IMG/VR virus record: IMGVR_UViG_2563366971_000005
DNA: 41,744 bases
Strand: one strand, 5' to 3'
Source of the DNA: a virus
Taxonomy: Duplodnaviria > Heunggongvirae > Uroviricota > Caudoviricetes
The first letter of the stretch is position 1. The number at the start of each line of letters is the position of its first letter. The notes under the pieces were generated by a model. That model was not told the origin of the DNA and ran no database searches. It saw only the letters and a list, made by a program, of their open reading frames with translations. Positions 3,933-36,035 of this stretch are shown piece after piece. The position numbers and the translations under genes were made by a program.

Positions 3933-6900
3933 TCAGCTAATCGTGATGCCTGCAGTGGCTTTCTTCATCACAACAACCAGCAAATCGCTGATACTTGCTG
4001 TGGGATACCAGCCATTTACCCACCATGCTGATACAGAAAACTCCAGCGTCATGTGACCGCGACCAGCAGGCATATCAATAACACCACTGTAAACCAGCGT
4101 ATTATCCAGCGCGGTACGGTTATAAATTTCAGCACCGTTTTTCTTCACTATCAGGCGGCATGACGAATAAGTATCGCTGTTCTCCCGCTCATGTCTGGCA
4201 CCGCTGAAAGCCACCGCCGGAATAACAATCTGCCGGTTAAACGGCTGATCGTCATAAACCCTGACGGTAATGGTTCCTGATGGCCAACGCTTCGGTGCAC
4301 GGGAGTCACGGGGGAAAGCCTTACCCACTGTTTTAACGAGATCGCCTTCAATCTGGTTTGCAGACAGTTTCCCTCTGATGACACAGTTCTCGTTAATGGT
4401 GACATTATTGAGCGTGCCGGTATTCGCCGTGATGGCTCCACTGATATCCGCATTGCGGGCTGTCAGCCTGCCATCCGGCGTCAGGGAAAACGTCGGAGGA
4501 TTGCCGGATGACGTGATGCTCACCGCAAACAGTCGCTTCAGGAACACGTCGTTCATGAACAGCTGATTCCCCTGCGCCACAAACAGCGGCGTGGTGTTGC
4601 CGTTCTCCGGGGTAATCATCGCAATGCGATCGGCCTGCAGCAGAATGTTACTCAGGGTCTGATCATCAACATCCTCAATCCCCGCGCCAATCCCGGCCAC
4701 ATAGGGAATACCGTTTTTTGTTTTCTGCACCTTCAGCATATACATGGCATTCAGCTCATTGCGCGTGTCTGACTGAACCCGCTGGATTTGCTGTATGGTC
4801 ACGGCCTGGTCACCCAGCTTTTTATCCGTGGTCGAGGTAATTTCACTCCCTTTTTTATCCACGTACTGGCGGACCTGTGCTATCTGTCGGGCGTTTTCTG
4901 ACTGCCCCTGGCTGACAGTCTGTGAGATTTCACTGCTCACCCGGTCCACTTTCTGGCTCACCTGCGCGATGGCCAGTGTCTGGTCCTCATTCTTTTTCGC
5001 AACCAGCTGCGTGAGGCTGTTTTCCGCCTTCCCGATTTTCCGGGTCACTTCTGCGATATCCGTGTCCATCCGCTGACGGATATCTTCTTCCAGTTGCGTG
5101 ACCTCCGTACGCAGCGCTGAAGCATCAATGCGCTCTTTCAGTGCCTGACCCAGAAGCGTCTCATCTATCAGCCCCCGGAAAATTTCCAGATACCCTTCAC
5201 CATCATTGCTGGGCTGCCCGCTGGCTTCCACAAAAGCAGATTTCCCCACCAGGTTGACGCTGCGCACGTAAAACCAGAAATCCGTCCCCGGCTTAATCCG
5301 GCTCCCCTGGACAGTCCACTGACTGCCGGTCCCCAGATAACGGGCAGATTTTTCCACCTGTGCCGTGTTCGTGATGCGTTTTTCTGAGAACCAGAATTCA
5401 AACTGTACCGTCGGGTCATACACCGCAAGACGCGGGACCGCCGTTATCTGAAAATACCCCGGCGTCAGCTCAATGGTGGCGGGTTTTGCAGGTGCGTTAA
5501 TCCGGAAGGTGGTGGTGGCAGGTTCACCCTGCTGGCCATAACTGTTTATCGCCCGCACCGTCAGGGTGTATTCCCCCAGTGGCAGGCCACTGAAACGGTG
5601 CTCCGTGTCTGCGGTGATGGCGGTGGTCACCAGTCTGGCATCCGTTCCCTTACCACTGGTCAGGCGCAGACTGAAGCGCACGCCCTTCACCACCCGCGGC
5701 GTGTCCCATTTAGCCTGCGCCAGATACTGGCCGTCAGCTGCGCTCACCTCCACCGTCAGGTGCTGTACTGCCGGTGGGATGACGCTGTTCAGGGAGCCTG
5801 ACTGCGGCTCAAAGCGGGCACCGTTATCCACGATGGCTTCTTTTTCCGGTACGTGCTGCACCGCCGTGATGGCAAAGGTGCCGTCCGTGTTTTCCCGGAT
5901 GGAGACACAGCGGAACAGGCGACGGCGCAGTGACGGCAGGGAGAGTCCCCACACACCGTATGTCTCCACACCATCCGGCAGGGTGCTGACCTGTATCCGG
6001 TCAGGCGCGGGGTGTGCGGTGATGGCCACGCTCGCCGGCTTACCGCTGCCGTTAATCAGATTAACAGTGGCCGTGCCGGTCTCCGGCAGTGTCACCTCCC
6101 GGTCCAGCGTCAGGGTACGGCTGGCGGCATCGATGGACAGGACACGTCCGCCGGTCATGGTCCCGGCATAGTCGTTATCACAGATTTCAATGATGTCACC
6201 GGGTGTGTGCCGCAGCCCCTGAGACCCGAGCGTGAAATCCACCGTCTGCGTTTCCAGCAGTTCGGTCTTTATCACCCACAGCCCGGCACGGTGGGCCTGA
6301 CCGCGGCTGGTACAGCCGAACGCGTCCATCTTCAGCAGGTTGCGTCCGTAGCGCAGTATGGCTTCCGGGTCTTCCACCAGTTCCGTGGAGGTCTGCCAGC
6401 CGTTCTGCGGGTCGGTGTAATTCACCTCCACCGCCGTGTGCCGGTCCTTCAGGGCACTGAAGCTGTAGCGGAACCCCACGCCGTTATCATCCACCACCAC
6501 ATCGCTGTTGGTGTACGGCCACACCACATCCGACGGGCGGTCCTGAACGAACGTCAGCGTCTGACCGTTCCATACCGGCATACAGCGCATCGCAGAGCAG
6601 AAATCACTGAGAACGTCCCACGCCTTACGCTGTTGTGCCAGGTACGCATTAAAGGTCATCCGCGGCTCGGTCCCCCCGAAACCATCCGGGACCGTCTGGT
6701 CGCAGTACTGCCCGATGGCATACAGCGCCCACTTGTCCACATCCGCCGCCCCCAGACGTTTTCCCATGCCGTAGCGCGGGTGAGTCAGCATGTCCCACAG
6801 GCACCAGGCCGGGTTGTTGCTGTATGCCGGTTTCAGACTGCCGTCCCAGATACCACTGTACGTGCGTTTTTCCGGGTCATAGTTTGACGGCACCTGGATG

Positions 6901-31904: not shown

Positions 31905-32279
31905 TCACTTAAATTTCGTCGCACGAATAACGTCAATTCCGTTCTCGCTATATCGAAGAGGGTGCTTACCGTCCCTGAGCAGGACAAAACCTGACATCCC
32001 CTCAGGTAGCTGAGCCAGCTTCATCAATGAACGGTTGCGGGGAGACTTCTTATCGACCTCAATGGCACACTGCTGGCCGTCTGATGATGTAACCAGGCAA
32101 CCAATAAACCCTTTACGACCACCGCTGATGCTGATGCTGATGCTGAAATTGCGTTGCAGGTGGTATCCCTGAGACTTGATTTTTTTCTGCATCACATAAT
32201 CGAAAACAACTTTGTCATCGGAGCGAATGAATTGCTCTTCCAGAAGAGCGATTAAATTTTGCTTCAGGTCTTCACTCAT
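31905..32279 (-). CDS. Hypothetical protein
   Basis: 124-aa ORF in early-right operon; no family recognised. Confidence 0.45.
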   Translation of the reverse strand: MSEDLKQNLIALLEEQFIRSDDKVVFDYVMQKKIKSQGYHLQRNFSISISISGGRKGFIGCLVTSSDGQQCAIEVDKKSPRNRSLMKLAQLPEGMSGFVLLRDGKHPLRYSENGIDVIRATKFK

Positions 32280-32527
32280 ACTTTTTATCCATCTTGTACT
32301 AGCTTTCTGGTACAGCCGTTTTTTCAGGGGTATCCCCCTTTAGATCGAGATCTACCTAACCTATGTACCCGTCTGTTGGAAAAGCCTGTTCCAGTGCTTC
32401 GCACTAACACACGGGCACTCCTCCCCCTCCCCTCCTCTCGTTGAATTTTCTACGTACCCTTTAACTAGTACAAAAATGCAATGAGATTTGGGATTCAGCC
32501 ACCGGACACCTTTAAGCCCGGTACCAA

Positions 32528-32821
32528 TCAGGAGCGCGATTGCGTTCCTGCCAGGGGCGGCTGAGTTGTATACCCCTGTAAAGCTCTGCCCTGATTTCTC
32601 ACAAACAAGCGGAGCCTTGTGTTTGCTTCGTGCCTTGCTCTGTTCTCCTTGCGGAATGAAACAGGCTCAGCGTCAAAAGTGATTTCGTATACCTCCGCAT
32701 ATTTCAGGGCGACCTTCCGTCTCAGTGACGGAGGCAGCCCCTGTAACTGCTGCTGAATCCACTCTTCGTCTGCCTGGCAGTACCTAGATGGCATCTCTGT
32801 CTGAACGTAATTCTGGGACAT
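32528..32821 (-). CDS. Hypothetical protein (cII-position)
   Basis: 97-aa ORF; overlaps upstream ORF by 38 nt, so start may be the internal Met. Confidence 0.4.
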   Translation of the reverse strand: MSQNYVQTEMPSRYCQADEEWIQQQLQGLPPSLRRKVALKYAEVYEITFDAEPVSFRKENRARHEANTRLRLFVRNQGRALQGYTTQPPLAGTQSRS

Positions 32822-33035
32822 ACAAGCCCTTCACCTCTCCCGTGCGCGCTAAGCTTGGATGTGTATATGGAATGTTCGGATCCAGATGGCAGAGAATGGC
32901 AACATCCTCCGGAACGCCCCGCGTTTTCCACTTTCCAACTCCCTGACTACCACGAGGCCTTCCTTTCTTTGGGAACCTGCGGCCAATAGCGGCATTGGTC
33001 TTAAATTGAGTTTTTAATATTTCATAAAGGGTCAT
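32784..33035 (-). CDS. Small basic protein with AT-hook-like KKGRPRG motif in cro-position
   Basis: 83-aa ORF divergent from the repressor gene; weak RBS; no canonical HTH recognised. Confidence 0.4.
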   Translation of the reverse strand: MTLYEILKTQFKTNAAIGRRFPKKGRPRGSQGVGKWKTRGVPEDVAILCHLDPNIPYTHPSLARTGEVKGLYVPELRSDRDAI

Positions 33036-33146
33036 TCTTTAGCCTCACACCGGATACTCTGTTATCCAAGAATGTTAAACACGAGAATCCAAAGTATCAA
33101 GAAATTCTGTTACTTTAGTATCAGCAGCCATGAAAGGAGAAGAAAA
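33036..33146. promoter_or_regulatory. Divergent promoter/operator region (OR-like) with RGTATCA-type repeats
   Basis: ggatact (33053..33059, inverted), aaagtatcaa (33091..33100), ttagtatcag (33115..33124) between divergent genes. Confidence 0.45.
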
Positions 33147-33803
33147 ATGAAATCTTTAGGTGAACGCCTCATCAACGCACGACAAAAAGCTGGGTTAACG
33201 CAAGATGCGTTGGCTAAAAAAGCAGGGGTCACCAGAGTTGCAATCAGTAAAGCCGAGCAAGGCCTTACAAAAAGTTTCAACGGTGACACCCTTTTTAAAG
33301 TCGCAGCTGCACTGCAGTGTTCACCGCAGTGGCTTCAGAACGGAGATGAAAAAGATAAGCATTGGGAAAATAATGTTAAGAGCTGCCCACAGAGAGACAC
33401 AGCACACTCTTACCCTGTAATTAACTGGGTTCAGGCAGGATTATTCGCAACTGCTGGTGATGACTACAACATGTATGATCAGGATAATTGGAGGCATTCT
33501 GTAAAATACGCTGGTGAGAGGGGGTTCTGGCTGGAAGTGCACGGAGACTCAATGACTTCGCCCGTAGGAATAACATTTCCTGAAGGAATGTCGATCCTTG
33601 TCAACCCAGATAAAGAAGTTTTTTCAGGGTGTTACGTCATCGCCAGAAAAAAATCTACCAATGAAGCAACATTCAAAAAATATATTTCTGAAATGGGAAA
33701 GGCGTTTCTAAAGCCCCTTAATCCACAATATCCAATCATAGAAATGGACAATGATTGCGAAATAGTAGGTGTTGTGGTTGATGCCAGGTGGGATATTTTC
33801 TGA
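33147..33803 (+). CDS. CI-like prophage repressor (N-terminal HTH, C-terminal S24 LexA-like peptidase domain)
   Basis: Start at MKSLGERLINARQKAGLTQ (ATG 33147) after AGGAGAAG; HTH_XRE-like N-terminus; GDSM Ser and downstream Lys of S24 autocleavage fold. Confidence 0.85.
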   Translation: MKSLGERLINARQKAGLTQDALAKKAGVTRVAISKAEQGLTKSFNGDTLFKVAAALQCSPQWLQNGDEKDKHWENNVKSCPQRDTAHSYPVINWVQAGLFATAGDDYNMYDQDNWRHSVKYAGERGFWLEVHGDSMTSPVGITFPEGMSILVNPDKEVFSGCYVIARKKSTNEATFKKYISEMGKAFLKPLNPQYPIIEMDNDCEIVGVVVDARWDIF

Positions 33804-33899
33804 CCAGACACAAAAAGAAACCAAAGTATCAAAAATCACTTGCCACACCTTGATACCTTAGTTACCATGAAGCAAAGTTCGTAACTGAGGTATCATCTC
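33804..33899 (+). promoter_or_regulatory. OL-like operator region with RGTATCA repeats and a 14-bp inverted repeat
   Basis: ccaaagtatcaa (33821..33832); inverted repeat gataccttagttac (33852..33865) / gtaactgaggtatc (33881..33894). Confidence 0.4.
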
Positions 33900-34316
33900 A
33901 TGATCAATAAAGCTACAACTCTTGACTGTCTCGAAGAACTGAAAAACCTCGGCAGCCTCATTACACTAATAGCAAAAGCAACACCAGATGCTACGCTCTC
34001 TAGCGATATAGAGTCATGCGCAGGACTGGCATGGGATATGACAAATAGCATATCCAGAAAGCTATCGTCAGCAATGCTTTTACAGAACAAAAATTCTGCA
34101 ATCAACAACAGTCTTCGCACCCAACGCGAAGACTGCGGCTTAACAACAGCCGAACTCGCCAGACTGCTCGATCTCGATGAAGAAATTATCATCCAGTGGG
34201 AGAGCGGAGAGTACGAACCAACCATCAGCATGCTTATCCCTCTGGCTAATGTTCTTGGCTGTGATCCAATGTTGTTATTGACTGATGCTTATAAACAAAA
34301 TCAGGAGGAAGCATAA
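33900..34316 (+). CDS. HTH (XRE-family) DNA-binding protein with unknown N-terminal domain
   Basis: 138-aa ORF; C-terminal GLTTAELARLLDLDEEIIIQWESGEYEP helix-turn-helix. Confidence 0.6.
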   Translation: MINKATTLDCLEELKNLGSLITLIAKATPDATLSSDIESCAGLAWDMTNSISRKLSSAMLLQNKNSAINNSLRTQREDCGLTTAELARLLDLDEEIIIQWESGEYEPTISMLIPLANVLGCDPMLLLTDAYKQNQEEA

Positions 34317-34317
34317 G

Positions 34318-34509
34318 ATGAAAATGTTCAAAGGCCTCACCAACGAACCGGAAACAGCTTTTCATCACATTGCCGTACTGCTTGAAGCGGGGTTAATCAT
34401 TTCGGCTTCCGGTGATGAAGAATGTGATGAACTTTCGGATGATATCTTTTTACTGGCACAACAATACGCCAGAAGCGCATGCGATGCATTTAAGGAGCAA
34501 AGAACATGA
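34318..34509 (+). CDS. Hypothetical small acidic protein
   Basis: 63-aa ORF starting 2 nt after previous stop. Confidence 0.4.
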   Translation: MKMFKGLTNEPETAFHHIAVLLEAGLIISASGDEECDELSDDIFLLAQQYARSACDAFKEQRT

Positions 34510-34881: not shown

Positions 34882-35241
34882 ATGACACATGAACCCATTA
34901 ATACATATCGTCGCCGTATAGCTGTTGCGGCACTCCATCGAATAAAACGTAAAACAGGTGGTAATCTGCTTATTGTTGACCTTCCGGATGGGAACATTAC
35001 GACCATAGAAATAACTGAACAGTTTATAAACCAGTTGCTGTTACGCTTCGAAGGTATTACCCGTGGTGAATTGGGCCGGGTGGAGGGTGAAACCGAAATC
35101 CACACTGCATACCAGAATGCTATCGGGATTAATCAACATACTGAATACCTGACTGAAACCGGAAAGTTAATTATAGACAACCTTTTTCAAGAGGTTATTG
35201 ATTACGCGAAAGAAAAATATATCAGCGGAGGAATTAACTGA
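34882..35241 (+). CDS. Hypothetical protein
   Basis: 119-aa ORF, no family recognised. Confidence 0.4.
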   Translation: MTHEPINTYRRRIAVAALHRIKRKTGGNLLIVDLPDGNITTIEITEQFINQLLLRFEGITRGELGRVEGETEIHTAYQNAIGINQHTEYLTETGKLIIDNLFQEVIDYAKEKYISGGIN

Positions 35242-35456
35242 TGGCTAATTTATCCCCTGTATCTGTTGTGCACGAAAAAGTGCAGATCGTTATGACAATT
35301 GAAAATGGCCAAGTCACAGGTGTCTGCAAAGTCCGCGATGGCGAGCTGATTGCCAGCATGGATACATTCATACGGCTGGCAGAAAGAGCGGGGTATCAGA
35401 TAACAGCACCTGCTCAGGAGGAAACCGGTGGCATTAACAGCAACACGCATTCCTGA
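35241..35456 (+). CDS. Hypothetical protein
   Basis: 71-aa ORF, TGATG overlap with previous gene. Confidence 0.4.
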   Translation: MANLSPVSVVHEKVQIVMTIENGQVTGVCKVRDGELIASMDTFIRLAERAGYQITAPAQEETGGINSNTHS

Positions 35457-35642
35457 GCGGATCCACCGGCAGGCATTGCAGGTCCTGTTGTTGTACCGAT
35501 GCCGACGGATATTTCCGCATCGGATACAGCGCACCGGATATCTCAGTCTGAAGGTTAACCGTCGCTGGCGGCTGTTATCGAAAGACGACGGCCGGAACTG
35601 GGAAGTAATGAGTCATGAACGTTATTCGGGAGAAATAAAGAA

Positions 35643-36035
35643 ATGATCGACAACCGCACCGCCAGCGCCATTGACCAGGCATTACAGAAACATGATACAC
35701 CCGTCGGCCCGTTATTTTTTGTAACACGCCACGGAAGAACAAAAAAATGCCTCACCCGAAAAACGGCAATTCGTTACCTGGCATTCTTTATGACCACCCG
35801 CGCTTTTGAACGTTCAGGATTCCGACAACGCTATCCTGACAAGCGTTTTATCTTCAACAGGAATGAGATATGGAAACGTGGAGAATCAACCACAGAGTAT
35901 ACCCGCGCACACCAGCGAACAATCAGACGACTGCGCAGACTCATCGCCAGGAAACAGTATACAGAAAAATGGTTCAGAAAATATGACACATGGAGCGCCG
36001 GATATTACGAACTGATGGCAACAAAACCATTCTGA
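35643..36035 (+). CDS. Hypothetical basic protein
   Basis: 130-aa Arg/Lys-rich ORF. Confidence 0.4.
   Translation: MIDNRTASAIDQALQKHDTPVGPLFFVTRHGRTKKCLTRKTAIRYLAFFMTTRAFERSGFRQRYPDKRFIFNRNEIWKRGESTTEYTRAHQRTIRRLRRLIARKQYTEKWFRKYDTWSAGYYELMATKPF

Follow-up and report, generated by a model that had tools for sequence, protein, structure and literature searches.

In a comparative study of Shiga toxin (Stx)-converting phages, the protein L12 of phage phiP27 was named 'Cro12' on the basis of its position (Smith et al., 2012, PMC3430580), and the degenerate primers given there for Cro12 encode MTLYEI and GKQSEV, which are the termini of L12 (PMC3430580). For Cro proteins without direct sequence similarity, orthology has been judged by position, transitive homology and structural similarity (PMC6649833), and YdaS of the prophages Rac and CP-933P (Pfam PF15943) has been demonstrated, or argued, to be an analogue of Cro (PMC8630535). 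Here we analyse a gene in the Cro position of a stretch of viral DNA of 41,744 nucleotides (IMG/VR virus record IMGVR_UViG_2563366971_000005, Caudoviricetes); the whole of this stretch is referred to below as the window. The gene lies at 32784..33035 on the minus strand, and its product of 83 amino acids (aa) is very probably Cro, the lytic repressor, in the phiP27-type immunity region of an Escherichia coli prophage, an assignment based on position, operators, transitive homology and predicted structure. Since the phiP27 orthologue has already been named Cro12, the Cro label by position is not new. What is new here is the prediction of a helix-turn-helix (HTH) of P22-Cro type whose basic turn is enlarged, together with a definition of the operators and an explanation for the tail of the protein and for the overlap of its gene with the next one.

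The gene has an ATG start, 83 codons and a stop, and is found as an open reading frame (ORF) in a program-made list, as a match to PHROG 4749 and as a coding sequence (CDS) in RefSeq, where the protein (WP_001553024.1) carries the name 'hypothetical protein' from the Prokaryotic Genome Annotation Pipeline (PGAP). The match to PHROG 4749, itself of unknown function, covers residues 1-68 (E 1e-47). A first-pass annotation, made from the sequence of the window, had placed the gene in the Cro position, divergent from the repressor, and had described its product as a basic 83-aa protein containing KKGRPRG. All of this is borne out. The protein, MTLYEILKTQFKTNAAIGRRFPKKGRPRGSQGVGKWKTRGVPEDVAILCHLDPNIPYTHPSLARTGEVKGLYVPELRSDRDAI, has an isoelectric point (pI) of 10.0, with 15 lysine and arginine residues versus 8 aspartate and glutamate residues, and KKGRPRG occupies residues 23-29 (window 32949..32969). 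About 110 nt away, and transcribed in the opposite direction, is a gene for a CI-type repressor of 218 aa (33147..33803, plus strand), which has the Pfam domains HTH_3 and Peptidase_S24 and is called 'LexA family protein' by PGAP. Positions 32300..34400 are 100% identical to several E. coli chromosomes, and the window is therefore an E. coli prophage; in these chromosomes PGAP annotates both overlapping CDSs exactly here, as hypothetical proteins beside the 'LexA family protein'.

Homologues of the 83-aa protein, 44 in all, come from Escherichia, Klebsiella/Raoultella, Yersinia, Kosakonia, Citrobacter, Salmonella, Photorhabdus, Xenorhabdus and Providencia; at the level of genome loci, the gene is also present in Proteus, Pantoea and Phytobacter. 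Fourteen loci were compared, 11 of them from genomes and the others from the window, phiP27 and an Stx1 phage. In every one of them the gene lies about 100 nt from a CI/LexA-type (S24) repressor gene of opposite orientation, and is the first to be transcribed on its side of a conserved region with three putative operators. In all 11 genome loci the divergent partner of cro codes for a homologous CI (42-72% identity), and the same pairing is seen in phiP27 and in Stx1 and Stx2 phages. We also observed that Cro is the more conserved member of the pair, the Cro core of the genome loci (L004-L014) being 63-77% identical to that of the window across genera, versus 42-72% for the paired CI. In comparisons of Cro and CI proteins, Cro is usually the more divergent partner.

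The predicted folded domain and its link to P22 Cro

A structural model was built with AlphaFold2 (AF2) on an alignment of 44 sequences, and helices were assigned by DSSP. In this model residues 1-60 (32856..33035, minus strand) form a folded domain, predicted to bind DNA, with helices at residues 3-11, 14-20, 30-39 and 43-51; 54 residues have a predicted local distance difference test (pLDDT) score of at least 90. Helix 2 of the putative HTH, NAAIGRR at residues 14-20 (32976..32996, minus strand), aligns with QRAVAKAL of P22 Cro, and the presumed recognition helix, SQGVGKWKTR at residues 30-39 (32919..32948, minus strand), aligns with DAAVSQWK. The profile alignment sets the limits of these elements at N14-F21 and S30-K37. 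The recognition helix is kinked at residue 35 and appears in the model as two helices, 30-34 and 36-39; Q31, V33, G34, K35 and W36 are each conserved in at least 90% of the family. The two helices are joined by a basic loop, PKKGRPRG at residues 22-29 (32949..32972, minus strand), which includes KKGRPRG. Compared with P22 Cro and with relatives that lack the basic segment, residues 22-26 (PKKGR) are a five-residue insertion, visible as a clean gap of five columns, and the turn of the HTH would therefore comprise nine residues versus the usual three to four or so.

Direct searches hardly reveal this relationship. None of the 44 members matches Pfam P22_Cro, and there was nothing relevant among the Pfam scans of these homologues; when the PDB was searched with the family profile, the only matches were chance ones to Ran-binding domains, with E-values of 0.17 or worse. 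Foldseek placed Xfaso-1 Cro and the hybrid XPH1 first in the PDB, and Cro- or YdaS-like proteins first in BFVD, where the top match is a protein named YdaS antitoxin; in both cases the E-values are non-significant.

The connection is instead made by way of relatives without the insertion. When 1.84 billion representative proteins were searched with the family profile, only 16 matched. In ten of these (P0049-P0058; E 3e-11 to 8e-4) the basic segment is missing, and the sequence is ...FGVTRQAVSKWK..GVPE.IALLCHLS..IPY.Y.P. When the family was aligned with these ten by hhalign, the probability was 99.6% and the E-value 1e-24, with a single gap of five residues. Seven of the ten match Pfam P22_Cro, and of these only P0054 passes the gathering score (31.2 versus 30.2 bits); the gene for P0054 is again divergent from an S24 repressor (locus L018). 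The profile of the ten insert-less relatives matches the structure of P22 Cro (PDB 1rzs) with an E-value of 3.6e-5, and a profile that combines them with the family aligns with P22 Cro at 95.6% probability and an E-value of 1e-8, with the same gap. Transitive homology and a helical HTH fold would thus both place the family among the all-alpha Cro proteins, while its own scores stay below the Pfam gathering threshold. We infer that residues 1-60 fold as an all-alpha domain similar to P22 and N15 Cro and containing an HTH, which profile scans missed because of the short insertion in the turn. The earlier statement that the protein has no obvious HTH is correct for direct scans of Pfam and NCBIfam, but it does not hold once the structural model and the transitive profile comparisons are taken into account.

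The basic loop had also been described as AT-hook-like. The core of an AT-hook is an invariant G-R-P, typically R-G-R-P, and HMGA proteins use it to insert into AT-rich minor grooves. At residues 25-27, members of the family have GKP (17 of 44), GKA (9), GRP (5), GRA (5) or GSA (2), with single cases of GTP, GNS, GRT, GKS, GRS and GKV. The five that carry GRP are all close relatives of the window protein, and RGRP occurs in none of the 44; the defining feature of an AT-hook is therefore not conserved. What the family has in common is the motif [FY]-P-[KRL]-[KR]-G-[KR]-[PA]-R-[SG]-[SG]-Q, in which G25 and R28 are invariant; a shorter version of it reads P-x-[KR]-G-[KR]-x-R. Basic residues do flank the tripeptide as they would in an AT-hook, positions 23, 24 and 26 being mostly lysine or arginine and R28 always present. 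An AT-hook is a free, disordered peptide, but residues 21-29 are predicted by AF2 to be an ordered loop (pLDDT ~94) inside the HTH. Pfam AT_hook (PF02178), a short model of limited sensitivity, found no match in the 44 members at E-values up to 10. From the comparison of these sequences, GRP here reflects variation within a basic loop that is specific to the family, and the AT-hook-like label should be dropped.

Putative operators, promoter and reading frame

Between cro and cI there are three conserved 14-bp palindromes of the form GAWAC-N4-GTWTC, which we regard as putative operators. The site nearest cI, the analogue of OR3, is at 33109..33122 (GTTACTTTAGTATC; GATACTAAAGTAAC in the cro-rightward reading). 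The middle site, at 33085..33098 (GAATCCAAAGTATC; cro-rightward GATACTTTGGATTC), overlaps the -35 element of the PR-like promoter, and the site nearest cro, at 33053..33066 (GATACTCTGTTATC; cro-rightward GATAACAGAGTATC), lies just downstream of the -10 element. All three sites are present in each of the 14 loci, 24 nt and 32 nt apart from start to start (the second gap is 35 nt in one locus), at -81 to -92, -57 to -68 and -25 to -33 from the ATG of cro. The promoter was found by a consensus scan. It is sigma-70-like, reads toward cro and lies at 33072..33100 on the minus strand, with TTGATA as the -35 element (33100..33095), a spacer of 17 nt and TAACAT as the -10 element (33077..33072). The -35 element falls inside the middle operator, and in the orthologous intergenic regions one can make out the same geometry of -35, 17 nt and -10.

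Downstream of cI, at 33817..33894, is another cluster of three operator-like sites, with starts at 33817, 33852 and 33881 (GAAACCAAAGTATC, GATACCTTAGTTAC and GTAACTGAGGTATC, respectively). This putative OL/PL analogue is only about 700 bp from OR and falls in the interval from the cI stop to the next gene on the plus strand, which encodes an HTH protein of 138 aa (33900..34316; PHROG 4739). An OL-like cluster is present in most of the orthologous loci, with pairs or triplets of sites downstream of cI in L004-L009. The pattern has 18 matches in the window, six of which fall within 842 bp where 0.23 would be expected (P ~2e-7). Judged from the sequence, the arrangement of operators and promoter is the classical lambdoid layout.

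Further along the early-left operon downstream of cI, we noted a gene that PGAP calls 'ParE family toxin-like protein' (~35428..35646, plus strand; 4629..4847 in locus L015, the identical E. coli region in RefSeq), preceded by a small ORF at 35241..35456. The arrangement is reminiscent of the paaA2-parE2 module of the CP-933P immunity region.

The 83-aa ORF is a real gene under purifying selection. Codons 1-60 align without gaps across the 14 loci, and pairwise differences at codon positions 1, 2 and 3 number 1210, 963 and 3036. The mean proportion of synonymous differences (pS) is 0.80 and that of nonsynonymous differences (pN) 0.19, and pN/pS is 0.23; for the close pair of the window and phiP27 the values are pS 0.42 and pN 0.02, while the two shifted sense frames score pN above pS. 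The annotated frame is the only one free of stops in all 14 loci. As alternatives, all five other frames were considered and rejected, as each holds stops in most of the loci and none is open throughout. A search of Rfam at gathering thresholds gave no match anywhere in the window, and a search of 32200..33200 at E-values up to 1 gave none either; there is therefore no sign of an RNA gene in the region.

The first-pass annotation had called the ribosome-binding site weak and the true structure of the gene uncertain, and had named a different conserved frame in homologues as a finding that would refute its reading. The comparison upholds the annotated frame and speaks against both reservations. 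The ORF offers no start earlier than the ATG at 33035, and every homologue starts with M-x-L-Y. As read from the sequence, a Shine-Dalgarno (SD) element, GAGG, lies 7 nt before this ATG (33043..33046, minus strand), and purine-rich, SD-like motifs precede the ATG in 14 of 14 orthologous loci; the site is adequate. Start and frame are conserved, and variation is confined to the C-terminal tail.

The tail, the overlap and the neighbouring genes

The tail, residues 61-83 with the stop codon (32784..32855, minus strand), is modelled at pLDDT 48-56, and across the family tails vary in both length and sequence. The 75-aa orthologues in phiP27 and the Stx phages have other tails and other downstream genes. 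In the window the end of cro overlaps the start of the next gene by 38 nt (32784..32821, minus strand), as had been noticed at first pass; the overlap with this gene (32528..32821) is real, and PGAP annotates both CDSs accordingly. In other genera the tail of Cro overlaps a homologous 97-aa gene by 11-32 nt.

The origin of the overlap can be read from the mosaic structure of the DNA. Megablast ranges place a joint at 32828..32833, inside the 3′ end of cro. To the right of ~32828 the window has a phiP27-like immunity module (95.6% identity by megablast), and to the left of ~32833 it is like phi467 and Fels-1 (98.8% and 90.9%, respectively), with the 97-aa gene and the replication module. In a DNA alignment the window is identical to phi467 from TGAAGGGCTTGTATG on. 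The TGA stop of phi467 cro sits immediately before the TGAAGGGCTTGTATG stretch, and the window is without that stop; TGA, the first three bases of the shared stretch, is out of frame in the cro of the window (GTG AAG). Translation would therefore continue to the TAG at 32784. A tail of 25 residues, HPSLxRTGEVKGLYVPELRSDRDAI, is also found on an unrelated Cro of YdaS type (P0044), which is encoded beside a different repressor in locus L017 and has an equal overlap of 38 nt with the 97-aa gene. The tail thus belongs to the left edge of the module that carries the 97-aa gene. On this sequence comparison the overlap is a by-product of mosaic joining, in which a recombination joint allowed the frame to continue for 38 nt inside the next gene, and the model indicates that the functional unit is residues 1-60, with residues 61-83 non-conserved and predicted to be disordered.

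Joints in the Cro family were observed to fall repeatedly just after '...IPYxHP' (P0005, P0044 and P0007), with tails that come from phiP27-like, phi467-like and DUF968-containing modules, one of which is shared with the YdaS-type Cro. This suggests that the 3′ end of cro is a preferred module boundary.

The 97-aa gene (32528..32821, minus strand; PHROG 852, function unknown) occupies the position of cII. Its product has 479 homologues, all hypothetical, and no match in Pfam; the family has the strongly conserved motif EPVSYRKENRARHEANxRLRxFV...GYTxxPPLAG, and AF2 predicts three helices with moderate confidence (mean pLDDT 66.7). At least two unrelated types of cro precede the gene, that of the present family and the YdaS type, and the tail of cro often overlaps it. 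An internal start at the conserved Met10 (ATG at 32794), which would reduce the overlap to 11 nt, was considered and is less likely. The N-terminal extension of nine residues (M-x-x-x-Y-V-Q-x-E before a conserved MP) is kept in most homologues, which supports the first ATG; this ATG has AAGGG 5 nt upstream, while Met10 is without a spaced SD.

Between the 97-aa gene and a gene for a 124-aa protein there is a noncoding gap of about 250 nt (32280..32527), which is conserved in phi467 and Fels-1. It contains perfect 9-bp inverted arms, TTGTACTAG (32294) and CTAGTACAA (32465), separated by some 160 nt, as well as a tract of pyrimidines, CTCCTCCCCCTCCCCTCCTCTC, at around 32421..32442. No Rfam match was found in the gap; an internal promoter, an operator or an origin element are possibilities. 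The 124-aa gene (31905..32279, minus strand; PHROG 1347, function unknown) has four tandem copies of GCTGAT at ~32128..32151, which give a run of SISISI.

Proposed function and comparison with known systems

Several points weigh against the assignment of the gene as cro. The window protein matches nothing in scans of Pfam (0 families at E-values up to 1) and NCBIfam, and the family profile on its own finds P22 Cro only weakly (E 0.026, probability 1.9%). The set that bridges the two consists of 10 sequences only. DNA binding by members of the family is predicted only, the operators were assigned from sequence pattern alone, and the role of the loop is purely inferred.

Three other explanations were weighed. 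One is that the protein binds DNA through its HTH in a role other than that of Cro, as a CII-like activator or as part of a YdaS-like toxin/antitoxin system. YdaS-family proteins take the same position in related prophages, P0044 has the identical tail, and the top match in BFVD, non-significant as it is, bears the name YdaS antitoxin; the window protein, however, lacks the profile and structure matches that mark the YdaS family, and we consider this explanation quite unlikely. Very unlikely, in our view, is a small regulator with no operator binding of its own, for instance an antirepressor, or a partner protein whose target would be CI or the 97-aa protein. The enlarged turn could in principle disrupt the canonical docking of an HTH, and the overlap with the 97-aa gene in several lineages may imply translational coupling. 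Nevertheless, fold and transitive homology point to DNA-binding Cro proteins, the most conserved residues sit in the presumed recognition helix and the loop, and the gene occurs strictly together with one family of CI and one type of operator. Moreover, in phiP27 and the Stx phages it is followed by unrelated genes, and is therefore independent of the 97-aa partner. Hardly credible at all is an AT-hook-type minor-groove binder without an HTH, in which KKGRPRG would insert into AT-rich minor grooves as in HMGA: the window protein does have G-R-P between basic residues, residues 19-39 are very basic (pI 12) and the centres and flanks of the operators are fairly A/T-rich, but conservation in the family largely refutes the idea, the segment is predicted to be ordered between two helices of a Cro-like fold, and the remaining domain is kept in the insert-less relatives.

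The cro gene is the first to be read leftward from the PR-like promoter. According to the model, helix 2 and recognition helix 3 would make up the HTH with the nine-residue basic loop between them. By analogy with lambda and P22, dimers of Cro would bind the same palindromes as CI, occupying the cI-proximal site first and so turning off transcription of cI, and would later damp PR and PL. The invariant G25 and R28 and the flanking lysine and arginine residues of the loop may lie at the outer edges of the half-sites, beside the DNA backbone, since this is where the position of the loop in the geometry of an HTH would best place it for contacts. Most likely it would add phosphate contacts, or possibly contacts in the minor groove. 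A further suggestion, which we make tentatively and regard as rather doubtful, is that the insertion turns the HTH turn into a second DNA-reading element, an ordered AT-hook-like arm, with G25 and R28 as its invariant residues, that reaches beyond the 14-bp palindrome to the minor groove or to the backbone on its flanks. If true, this would mean bipartite recognition of the major and minor grooves and a larger footprint than that of the paired CI, which is not described for Cro proteins.

The finding is largely an ordinary one, and the general picture of lambdoid switches is unchanged: we regard the family as an ordinary Cro subfamily with an unusual turn. Its members are found in the phiP27-type immunity regions of Stx1-, Stx2a- and Stx2e-converting phages and of prophages of many Enterobacterales, and a functional label for them is absent from Pfam, NCBIfam, PHROGs, GenBank and RefSeq. 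The analysis offers such a label, Cro of the P22-Cro type, for proteins otherwise left hypothetical, and it defines the operator set of phiP27-type immunity at the level of sequence. It also provides a clear case of a short insertion in the turn letting an HTH escape detection by profiles, and of a module boundary at which recombination produces overlapping genes.

The lambda-repressor-like superfamily includes the POU-specific and CUT domains, in which the connection between helix 2 and helix 3 is lengthened, and these are a precedent for the enlarged turn; they are, however, eukaryotic and unrelated in sequence, and ranked below the Cro proteins. Lambda Cro proper is of the alpha+beta type, with a C-terminal beta-hairpin in place of helices 4 and 5 that the window protein does not share. 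The gene for the YdaS-type protein P0044 precedes the same 97-aa gene and shares its tail and overlap with the window; it lies in one of the related mosaic prophages in which YdaS proteins take this position. A closer relationship is that with the all-alpha Cro lineage (Pfam P22_Cro, PF14549), whose known structures are those of P22 Cro (1rzs), N15 Cro (2hin) and Xfaso-1 Cro (3bd1). The window family differs from this lineage in its five-residue basic insertion, which gives a link of nine residues between helix 2 and helix 3, in a C-terminal motif of its own, VPEDVAILCHLDxxIPYxHP, and in the variable tail of up to ~25 residues. The closest described protein is L12 of phiP27, a direct orthologue that is 88.6% identical over residues 1-70 and has the same CI and the same operators. 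It differs in being 75 aa long, with another tail and another downstream gene, and is still named 'hypothetical' in GenBank and RefSeq.
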